Positions 46,101-49,100 of a DNA stretch of 64,000 nt are shown piece by piece (the first letter of the stretch is position 1; the number at the start of each line of letters is the position of its first letter). Under the pieces are notes generated by a model. The model saw only the letters and a program-made list of their open reading frames with translations. It was not told the DNA's origin and did no database searches. The DNA comes from Hormiphora californensis (Eukaryota; Animalia; Ctenophora), in NCBI GenBank assembly GCA_020137815.1, contig CM035359.1, positions 4,712,001 to 4,776,000 of the forward strand, written 5' to 3'. A program made the position numbers and the translations under genes.

Positions 46101-49100
46101 CATAATATACAATAGTACGCACTTGAAACCTTTTTTATCTGAAAGGCCAGACAATTTCCTATATTTTGGTCTATAAGACATCGATGAGGTTCGATGAGGA
46201 GGCTGGGGAGAAAGCGTTAAAGAAGGCGTGTTTGTTTACTTTAAAAAAACGATCTTTCAAAAGTTTGAGACCTAACTAAACACGTATTCCGACCTTATTT
46301 TACATGTAGAATCGATTGCCGATAGAATTGGGACTCTAATATTGAAGGATAACGGTGAAAATCACATGTTGTTAGACCATGAATTTTGTTAAGCTTGGAT
46401 TATCCGATGGGTAGACACTAGACATGTTCCTGCAAAAAGGAATTATACATTTTAACGCCTTGGAGAGGTTGGTGATGTTCATAGACGGCTGAATAAAACT
46501 CGCTTCATAACGATAAAATGTGGAAATGAGTTAATAAACAGAAGGATTGAAAACAGAGCTCTCAGCAGAAGAAGGACTTTACCAGGGTGTCCATGTGATT
46601 CATGGGTCCTGTTCTGTTGTTACATTGTCCTTTAGAGTGCCCGGGTGTATGGCACAACTGACATTTCACCCCTACAGATAGCCGGTGTTCTGTCAATTCG
46701 GGGTCACCGATAATGAACAGCCTTCTTATGGTGTCTTTGAGGTTGTCCGTTTGCGAGGTTTTTCTAGCGAGGCGTGACCTGTAAACAAACACGCCTTCTT
46801 TAACGCTTTCTCCCCAGCCTCCTCATCGAACCTCATCGATGTCTTATAGACCAAAATATAGGAAATTGTCTGGCCTTTCAGATAAAAAAGGTTTCAAGTG
46901 CGTACTATTGTATATTATGGTCGAAAAATCAAGTTTTCTTCATTTTTTGACCATAAAAACGCCCTGGATGAAGTTTGAAAAAAAATTTTGAATGAGATAT
47001 AAATTTGTTCGATTTCTTACTATCAACCACATTTAAATTGTTATGGATCCCCATTTCACCTGCTCCAGCTAAATTTTAAATATGGTTGTCAAAGAAGCCT
47101 AAAAAGACTAAAAACTGAAAAAACACCACTTTCCTCAAAAAATCAAGGCATGAGTGAGGGGTGCATTTGATTCTACGTCAAAAAAGCTACCAGATAAGCT
47201 CATAAAAATTTTTTCGAAAATTTTTCAATTACCCTTCTTTTTGAAAAAACACCACTTTCCTCAAAAAATCAAGGCATGAGTGAGGGGTGCATTTGATTCT
47301 ACGTCAAAAAAGCTACCAGATAAGCTCATAAAAATTTTTTCGAAAATTTTTCAATTACCCTTCTTTTTGGAAAAACACCACTTTCCTCAAAAAATCAAGG
47401 CATGAGTGAGGGGTGCATTTGATTCTACGTCAAAAAAGCTACCAGATAGGTTCAAAAAAATATTTTCCTTAATGACCACCTACTCCCATGAAAAAGGCCA
47501 CTGTGGTCCAGACCTATGTGATGTGACCTATAATAATAGATTGTCTAAACACTATCTAGTGATCCTCTCATTATTTTCAGCAAGTCACCACATTAGTGTC
47601 TAATACATTTTCCCCTCAGCAGGTCACCACAACCAGCCCCAGGGTATAGTCCAGAAGGTGCTCAGAGAAATGGATAGAGAGGAGCAACAGATGGGTTAGT
47701 AGAGTACTGAGAATTTGATAAAGTTGCTTTCCTTTTTTAAAGGAAAAAAGTCCGTGACTGCTGCGTGAAAGTGATCACATGTACAACTTGTACATATTGT
47801 ATTGTACAGTACATGTAACTTTTTATCATAGCGCTGGCAAGCGCCCGGGGCCCAATCCTCCCTCCCCCCAACCATCCTTCCCTTAAAAATGTCCATTTTC
47901 CAAGCATTCTTGCTTCCATTGAATGGAAAATCGAAATTGCGAAAAAAAATCTTTTGAATTTTTTGAAAATTTTGACAGCGCTACTATACTTATTGTCTGA
48001 AATCGGCGATTTCAACTTAGTTTTAGACAACCTTCTCGTTGTCCTACGAACATGCCGCTTGGTAGTTCGTGTTGCCTTGACACCTAGAGCACACGTTTAA
48101 AATTTCATGCAAATCGGAGTTACGGTTTTTGCGCTACAGATGGTCGTATTTTAGACAAAATGTCCGTTTTTAGCGTGACGAACCACCGTAAAGTAACGAC
48201 TTTTTTGCGTACACGATGGAGGTCACAGTTTTAAAGCTATCATCATGAAACTTTGGGAGTCGGTAGGTTTAGTGGTGTACCTCGTATTAAAGCTTGGACA
48301 GAGAAAACGGACAGTCATAACAAAAGTTATGACTGTCTTAAGCCTTCCCGTCGTTCTACGAACACGCCGCTTGGTACGTTGTGTTGCCTTGACATCTCAA
48401 ACACACGTTCAAAATTTCAAGCAAATCCGACTTACGGTTCTTCAGTTACGTGCATCTGACTGTATTAAGATTTAAGACGATTTTCAAAAAAACCTAGAAA
48501 AGAGCAAATTAAACTTTAAATCATGATTTTATCACATATATTTTGCCAACGTAGGTCAACTGCTGTATTTTCAGATATAATTGGAAGTCATATCTAGATT
48601 TATGATTGTCTTAAATTTAAGACGATTTTAAAAATGCCTAGAAAGAAGCGTTTCAGAGTCTAGATTAACATTGAATCAGATTTATTTTATAAAATAAGGT
48701 TTACTGCCGCATTTTCAGTTATAATGGGTAGTCATATCTAGAGTTATGACTGTCTTAAATATAAGACGATTTGAAAAAACCGAGAAAAGAGCGAATTAGC
48801 ATCTAGAACCTGATTGTATCAGATATATTTGATTATCAATGCTTATCCTTGATCGTTATCAGTAACTAATAATCAAAATCAGAGAATAATCGTGGAGAAC
48901 CAATCACGGATAACTAATAAATAATAGTAATCGCGGATAACTACTTAACCACGACAACTCATCGCGAATGAGTAATATGATAGTTACCAATCGCGGATAG
49001 CTAATCGCAAATATAGCTAATCGCGATAGCTAATCGCGATAGCTAATCGCGATAATTAATCGCAGATAACTTATAACGGATTCGTGATCAGTTATCCGCG

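Follow-up and report, generated by a model that had tools for sequence, protein, structure and literature searches.

A probable Subgroup I Transib remnant between long inverted arms in the genome of the ctenophore Hormiphora californensis

Transibs move horizontally. According to the sections of Kapitonov and Jurka (2005, PMC1131882) consulted here, they are characterized by 5-bp TSDs, by RSS-like CAC termini and, in some families, by 12/23-like ends. More recently, Tao et al. (2022, PMC9435367) split the Transibs in two, with Subgroup I being defined by a CX2CX3GHX4C tail (CTT1), by the alpha11-alpha12 region and by asymmetric TIRs, and both this class and its “intermediate” status have been in print since then. 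Martin et al. (2023), in the excerpts available, also report that the CCGHC tail, asymmetric TIRs and the GRPR/K NBD are all found in Transibs. Subgroup I is relevant to how V(D)J recombination originated, since it is the proposed stock from which RAG1 arose. The main text of Tao et al. contains no biochemistry for this subgroup, and in the literature that we searched the phrase “Subgroup I Transib” occurs in the defining paper alone.

In this work, we analysed a stretch of 64,000 nucleotides of the ctenophore Hormiphora californensis (hereafter, the window), in which a preliminary description had reported a short minus-strand peptide combining a Transib-type core end with a RAG1L-type tail. 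Based on the ends of the surrounding element, on the relatives of the peptide and on contigs from sequencing runs, we consider it very probable that this peptide is encoded by what survives at the 3' end of a Transib transposase gene, which likely belongs to the CTT1-bearing Subgroup I and lies in a non-autonomous element of 2,487 bp that likely lost most of the gene through a microhomology-mediated internal deletion.

Architecture of the element

The element occupies positions 45019-47505, is internally deleted, carries CACAGTG at both ends and is flanked by a perfect 5-bp TSD (Table 1); no other pair of CAC-type ends less than 15 kb apart in the window is flanked by a TSD. Both termini read CACAGTGGCCTTTT, which corresponds to the RSS heptamer followed by seven common bases. 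The tips are nevertheless asymmetric, with an 11-nt offset between the two conserved blocks and the long form at the right end, 5' of the gene. A nonamer-like pair of adenines at positions 5-6 was also considered, but it appears only with spacers of the 13/24 type and is a post hoc fit, and it is not relied on.

Table 1. Coordinates of the element's features within the window
Feature	Positions	Strand	Basis or remark
Left TSD, GTCCA	45014..45018	.	end/TSD scan
Right TSD, GTCCA	47506..47510	.	end/TSD scan
3' terminal tip (transposase orientation), short spacer: CACAGTGGCCTTTT followed directly by the GGTGGTCAYTAAG block	45019..45075	+	
5' terminal tip, long spacer: CACAGTGGCCTTTT, 11 extra nt, then the GGTGGTCAYTAAG block	47446..47505	-	
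Left (3') arm: four 126-bp units (last partial) and ~335 bp of unique sequence	45054..46239	+	inverted copy of the right arm
Right (5') arm: three 126-bp units (last partial) and unique arm	46781..47467	-	
Nested high-copy repeat between left-arm units, not Transib; ends approximate	45313..45678	.	right arm lacks it
Unique non-coding sequence following the stop; likely 3' UTR or subterminal	46240..46561	-	
Last 73 codons and stop of a Transib transposase	46562..46783	-	translation, phmmer, profile scores, AlphaFold
Parts of this remnant: catalytic-helix end YR..LARK; core end NL.D..RL....DP; CTT1 zinc knuckle CX2CX3GHX4C; terminal D.LV.SFF helix	46562..46783	-	
TAC microhomology between the 5' arm and a transposase Tyr codon, at the deletion junction	46781..46783	-	

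Inside the tips lie near-identical, internally repetitive arms, about 725 bp long on the right. Positions 46031-46239 and 46781-46989 are 99% complementary, and the longer comparison of 45679-46239 with 46781-47341 gives 98.9% identity over 562 bp. The first arm unit contains a variant which is common to both arms, in register, suggesting blockwise copying or homogenisation of the arms. Together with the perfect TSD, the arm identity also suggests a recent insertion. Two traits of the element are less usual, namely its offset of exactly 11 bp and its Foldback-like arms; among the titles listed (20 of 28) by a literature search on Transibs with long or foldback TIRs, none describes such arms for a Transib, a weak negative at the level of titles. 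No other transposase remnant scored below E 0.8 when the window was searched by TBLASTN with ten proteins.

The left arm is interrupted by a very high-copy repeat, which starts near AACAAGAATAAC and finishes with a hairpin (13-bp stem) followed by G-rich bases, and whose summed contig depth exceeds that of the arms by orders of magnitude. We take it to resemble non-autonomous elements of the Helentron/Helitron type.

Several other features were observed in the window. A second foldback-like element lies at 16265-17664, with 610-nt arms (98% complementary), a 180-nt spacer and ATTAAGGG ends, with no obvious TSD, and a 125-nt perfect inverted repeat at 49237-49675, whose 189-nt spacer contains a lone CACAGTGGGT end at 49425, is possibly a fragment of another Transib-like element. 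At 10337-10390, CACAGTG is followed by a long hairpin-forming stretch (AGGCGACTCAAG...CTTGAGTCGCCT) for which no TSD-bearing partner end was found, and at 7242-8300 a long array of 15-bp tandem units yields several low-complexity open frames. To the left of the element, five 40-bp tandem units (44611-44810) each carry a donor-like GTAAGT, and to its right (47610-47622) there is a site resembling an acceptor; the transposon probably resides in a plus-strand host intron. Immediately to the right of the element, a short stretch at 47780-47870 looks, on visual comparison, like a motif that precedes the coding region of PbaTransib_0868 in the portion of the Tao et al. supplement (PMC9435367) consulted; it may be a shared repeat.

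The coding remnant and its relatives

Translation of 46562-46783 on the minus strand yields 73 residues and a stop, exactly the peptide quoted in the preliminary description (labelled P0001 in our searches and tree), and the frame holds the sole match to CX2CX3GHX4C in the six frames of the 64 kb. As that description had also noted, the remnant begins at the inner end of the long inverted repeat, where the arm stops; we find that the first codon (TAC, 46783-46781) doubles as the last three nucleotides of the arm. This copy has neither a Met nor a long frame upstream, and all three catalytic residues are absent. In the AlphaFold model, helices are predicted at residues 11-26, 28-37 and 63-72; with a pLDDT of 75 and a pTM of 0.37, the model gave no significant match with Foldseek or VIA (best Z 2.9), comparisons which are uninformative for a fragment.

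An exhaustive phmmer search with the peptide returned 37 matches at E<=0.001, with 31 of them being Transib/RAG1-type transposases that align over core end and tail (28 of the 31 carry a relaxed form of the knuckle). The remaining six are unrelated: three ankyrin-repeat proteins, one low-complexity repeat protein, one reverse-transcriptase protein with knuckles (rank 7) and one other. The two best E-values belong to an ankyrin-repeat protein (P0002) and to the low-complexity protein (P0003), because of summed repeats. Pfam RAG1 is matched by 15 of the 37 at E<=0.01, five of these above the curated cut-off, and one match of 671 residues hits HzTransib (6pqn, E 8e-22), BbRAG1L (6b40, 1e-8) and vertebrate RAG1. 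Word-index protein searches with the 73-residue peptide returned nothing among proteins of longer or near lengths, the method being insensitive here.

When the peptide and its 31 transposase matches were combined in a profile (alignment A2), 17 Transib/RAG sequences of the PDB were placed above every zinc knuckle (6pqn 2.5e-32, 6b40 4e-16, best knuckle 1.9e-5), and when 12 long members served as queries, 16 proteins were recovered, among them one from Bolinopsis microptera and, as a weak match, platypus RAG1. In the opposite direction, the window frame ranked first of 2,118 stop-to-stop segments with each of three profiles. The first (alignment A1) gave 74.9 bits, a circular score, since A1 was built from the peptide's matches and their cluster mates. 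The second comprised 14 relatives from outside the match list (eight without the knuckle tail, RAG1 left out), which are not fully independent, given that they were found through A1, and gave 14.4 bits (E 0.001). The third was restricted to the six of these 14 that end in a knuckle and gave 56.6 bits (E 1.6e-16), compared with 3.9 bits for the next segment and 5.0 for the best of 2,000 shuffles. Judged by these similarities, the frame encodes the C-terminus of a DDE transposase of the Transib/RAG1 type, and the combination of core end and CCGHC tail which had been pointed out in the preliminary description recurs in the peptide's family.

The locus scans and motif scans gave candidates that were set aside. 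Two viral loci past the cut-off (L001 and L002) were treated as probable chance, L001 after checking one other frame; a metagenome locus (L003) is an off-frame match over bacterial genes; and the degenerate motif scan gave two genome matches and one viral match, all off-frame or unrelated, at about chance expectation. A search for viral loci with the family alignment found none.

With regard to classification, the Transib features observed are the CAC/RSS-like heptamer at both ends, the 5-bp TSD and a DDE transposase homologous to the RAG1 core (directly over the C-terminal 73 residues, and over the whole core through the relatives; two Asp are deleted in this copy and the Glu is seen only in the X6 contig described below). 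From the Subgroup I features, the element itself displays the CTT1 tail and the asymmetric TIR pair. The alpha11-alpha12 region is deleted in this copy, and the full-length relatives are ungapped there relative to RAG1 and BbRAG1L, with a 7-column gap in HzTransib. Additionally, the 31-residue pre-RNase H loop of RAG1 is gapped in the comparison with the family profile, and neither a RING nor a RAG1 N-terminal domain was found in any of the seven long relatives scanned.

The closest match, P0004, is 52% identical to the peptide. Identity is 30/73 with P0057 (41% over 72 of the 73 residues) and 31/73 (42%) with the Bolinopsis microptera protein P0054 (LOC134813500). Most relatives carry no species name, and those close ones that do are all from ctenophores. 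Compared by eye with the part of the Tao et al. supplement (PMC9435367) at hand, the tail of P0057 is identical to that of MleTransib_3931, and the tail of a direct match, P0020, equals that of MleTransib_2823 except for the helix missing in the published gene model; we infer the Subgroup I membership of both Mle entries from the criteria stated by Tao et al. In a tree of 34 rows, with neither invertebrate RAG1L nor Subgroup II among them, P0001 pairs with P0004 (99/89) and not with the Mle rows, in an analysis whose backbone is unresolved, whose bootstrap did not converge and in which P0001 fills 28% of the columns. As the backbone is open, the placement rests on features and similarity and not on phylogeny. 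The proposal that the parent enzyme may be intermediate between Transib and RAG1L was right in substance but not new, for it corresponds to the Subgroup I of Tao et al. (2022, PMC9435367), and the element is likely, from its sequence features, a new member of this already described “in-between” group, not something new in kind.

In the published set, the “bacterial” CthTransib entries (portion of the PMC9435367 supplement consulted) come from contigs of 3.2-4.6 kb in assemblies of uncultured SUP05, one of them being modelled with introns, so that eukaryotic contamination is a possibility. When genomes of prokaryote species were scanned for the exact motif, no Transib tail of the CTT1 type turned up, but this pattern would miss the Cth tail.

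The deletion junction and the alternative readings

At least half of the region's words were present in 6 of the 22 sequencing runs listed, under one organism label and from two samples; marine metagenome runs with a small share were left out as evidence. A 159-nt contig from run X6 (sample S2) matches 46667-46783 and then departs from the window sequence for 42 nt. When reverse-complemented and translated by hand in the peptide frame, 30 of these 42 nt read LEACNKLLRR, the catalytic-glutamate helix including the catalytic Glu; the same ten residues lie just upstream in the closest match, P0004, and the last nine in eight stored relatives. As far as can be read from this continuation, the gene is shown to code further in another individual, which is no proof of an intact gene; no full-length copy was recovered from the contigs. 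A DEEAGE-like stretch in the neighbouring arm frame had also been considered as a frameshifted catalytic motif and was rejected, since it occurs in both arms and the real upstream helix is found in X6.

Other contigs diverge elsewhere, one from run X5 (same sample as X6) at 46746, where it passes into a different sequence for 217 nt, and a second one from X6 at 46696, and further contigs link the arms across shorter spacers; these observations point to a family with several derivatives. One X5 contig covers the sequence from 46339 to the stop and extends into the coding remnant. The window's own junction is crossed by contigs from X1 and X2 with only 24-27 nt on the arm side, below our 31-nt rule, and these may come from the source sample. 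In the RNA runs, X22 gave no contigs on the region and X9 had none that cover the coding remnant; this does not demonstrate silence.

These data bear directly on the acceptor-like start attributed to the remnant in the preliminary description. The string TTTGTTTACAG is indeed present there, with a T-rich tract and an AG exactly at the remnant's start, and the ctenophore Transib gene models predicted by Tao et al. (PMC9435367, as far as the source was available) do hold introns, so a spliced last exon, belonging to the parent gene or co-opted into a host transcript, can be envisaged. We find a real exon start very unlikely, because the T-rich tract is arm sequence, also found in the left arm with no coding sequence after it, and because the X6 coding frame runs upstream through this very position, where the relatives keep Y/F/C-R. 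The Y-R is thus best read as original coding sequence and the AG as a by-product of the deletion, with the junction being a 3-bp (TAC) microhomology with the arm and not a splice site. The same in-frame continuation weighs against a generic gag/MULE zinc knuckle, or a chance ORF caught between inverted arms. The preliminary description had itself remarked that the motif fits generic knuckles and that the context supports the call, and had proposed a check against RAG1 and Transib profiles; the bare peptide finds only weak knuckle-type or unnamed matches in Pfam, PDB sequences and the ESM Atlas, led by zf-C2H2_10 (E 0.011), the RSV nucleocapsid (E 0.027) and zinc-knuckle clusters (<=0.89, all Atlas scores being under 0.9), while its relatives and the family profile do match RAG1, HzTransib and BbRAG1L. 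The first 36 residues, which exclude the knuckle, match the Transib core end by themselves, with 32.8 bits on the six-relative profile (shuffle maximum 4.9) and 32.8-37.3 bits across the transposase profiles (shuffle maxima 4.9-6.4). Moreover, only one of the 37 matches is a retroelement knuckle protein, and the ends and TSD are of Transib type. With the profile scores and the X6 continuation combined, the knuckle or chance reading is effectively refuted.

A closer competitor would be the remnant of a true RAGL transposon (RAG1L plus RAG2L) from which RAG2L and most of RAG1L have been lost. Virtually every invertebrate RAG1L carries the CCGHC tail, and CAC ends with 5-bp TSDs are common to RAGL as well (both according to the parts of the literature at hand). 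Furthermore, in AanRAGL the RAG2L lies upstream in tandem (Tao et al. 2022, PMC9435367), and the upstream part of our element is precisely what has been deleted. Nevertheless, the nearest relatives are proteins of 650-790 residues that lack the N-terminal domains of RAG1 and also the pre-RNase H loop, a RAG1L gain according to Tao et al. (2022, PMC9435367); BLASTP detects no significant similarity between the peptide and platypus RAG1, and the bare peptide finds no RAG1/RAG1L sequence in the PDB; the 322 bp after the stop contain no long open frame and no RAG2L-sized ORF, leaving no room for a convergent RAG2L; and the tip lacks the AAA at positions 8-10 described, in the source as available, for protostome RAGL TIRs. 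We therefore consider a RAGL origin unlikely, and retain the remnant of a Transib transposase gene as the preferred reading.

Proposed mechanism and comparison with known systems

For a Transib remnant of this kind, a mechanism can be proposed by analogy with RAG, ProtoRAG and HzTransib. A full-length transposase of the family (~650-790 residues, DDE, with no RAG2 partner), supplied in trans, would bind both tips, nick at the CAC heptamer, open the flanks via hairpins and insert the element with a 5-bp stagger. The CCGHC tail may clamp the bases beside the heptamer, as the CTT* does in BbRAG1L, where it is required for cleavage and specificity (as reported by papers citing Zhang et al. 2019). 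Most of the gene would have been lost by internal deletion at the TAC microhomology. Having neither a Met nor a long frame upstream and missing the catalytic triad, this copy would make no protein; since both ends are intact, it could still be mobilised in trans.

It is conceivable, though we propose it only tentatively and rather doubt it, that the species still has an intact, recently active, RAG2-free and CTT1-bearing Subgroup I Transib, with ends that differ by exactly 11 bp (one helical turn, the 12/23 offset) and carry Foldback-like 700-bp arms. The signs in this direction are the perfect TSD, the 98.9% identical arms, the in-frame catalytic helix in another individual and the several derivative junctions. 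If true, this would provide a natural enzyme with its substrates, with which one could directly ask whether 12/23-type end pairing and CTT1 clamping are older than RAG2. The 73-residue remnant by itself changes no model; the element adds one host and a clean end pair with a TSD and 11-bp asymmetry. Its practical value is in marking a genome where a young family may keep a working copy; with such a copy, a CTT1-bearing, RAG2-less transposase could be tested biochemically.

Among the described systems, the element is most fully compared with Subgroup I (MleTransib_3931 and MleTransib_2823 of Mnemiopsis leidyi, and Bolinopsis microptera P0054), which, in the published material consulted, has the same core end, a CCGHC tail 12 residues after the DP and the terminal D.LV.SFF helix. 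Read by eye in the same material, the ends of MleTransib_3931 and PbaTransib_0868 start with CACAGTGG and have the long spacer at the 5' end, like the element, with a tip offset of ~10 nt in contrast to 11 bp. The second tip block is GGTGGTCAYTAAG in the element and GCTATATTAGG in the Mle/Pba Subgroup I ends, and the short end stretches given for Mle and Pba diverge right after the tips, whereas the element has ~725-bp near-identical arms with 126-bp units. Unlike them, our copy is non-autonomous.

ProtoRAG (BbRAG1L, 6B40), as far as the sources at hand describe it, shares the CX2CX3GHX4C tail, the CAC heptamer and the 5-bp TSD, and the alpha11-alpha12 region is kept by the element's relatives. 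The core end differs, however (RL....DP in the element, HWLYT in BbRAG1L/RAG1L), and the relatives have neither the N-terminal non-core region nor the pre-RNase H loop of RAG1L; no RAG2L was seen in the part of the element that is left, and, unlike in the RAGL transposons described in those sources, no A-rich block stands beside the heptamer. Subgroup II (HzTransib, PDB 6PQN, and the insect Transibs) has the same RK.S.....D.....SDP-type core end and 5-bp TSD, 6PQN being the best structural-database match of the family profile, and some of its families have 12/23-like TIR pairs in the available sections of Kapitonov and Jurka (2005, PMC1131882). Its CTT2 tail lacks the CCGHC found in the element, and alpha11-alpha12 is missing, according to the source as consulted. 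Finally, Galileo and other Foldback-type elements (P superfamily and others) likewise have long, internally repetitive inverted arms in the descriptions available, but with unrelated transposase and termini, so that the likeness is architectural only.
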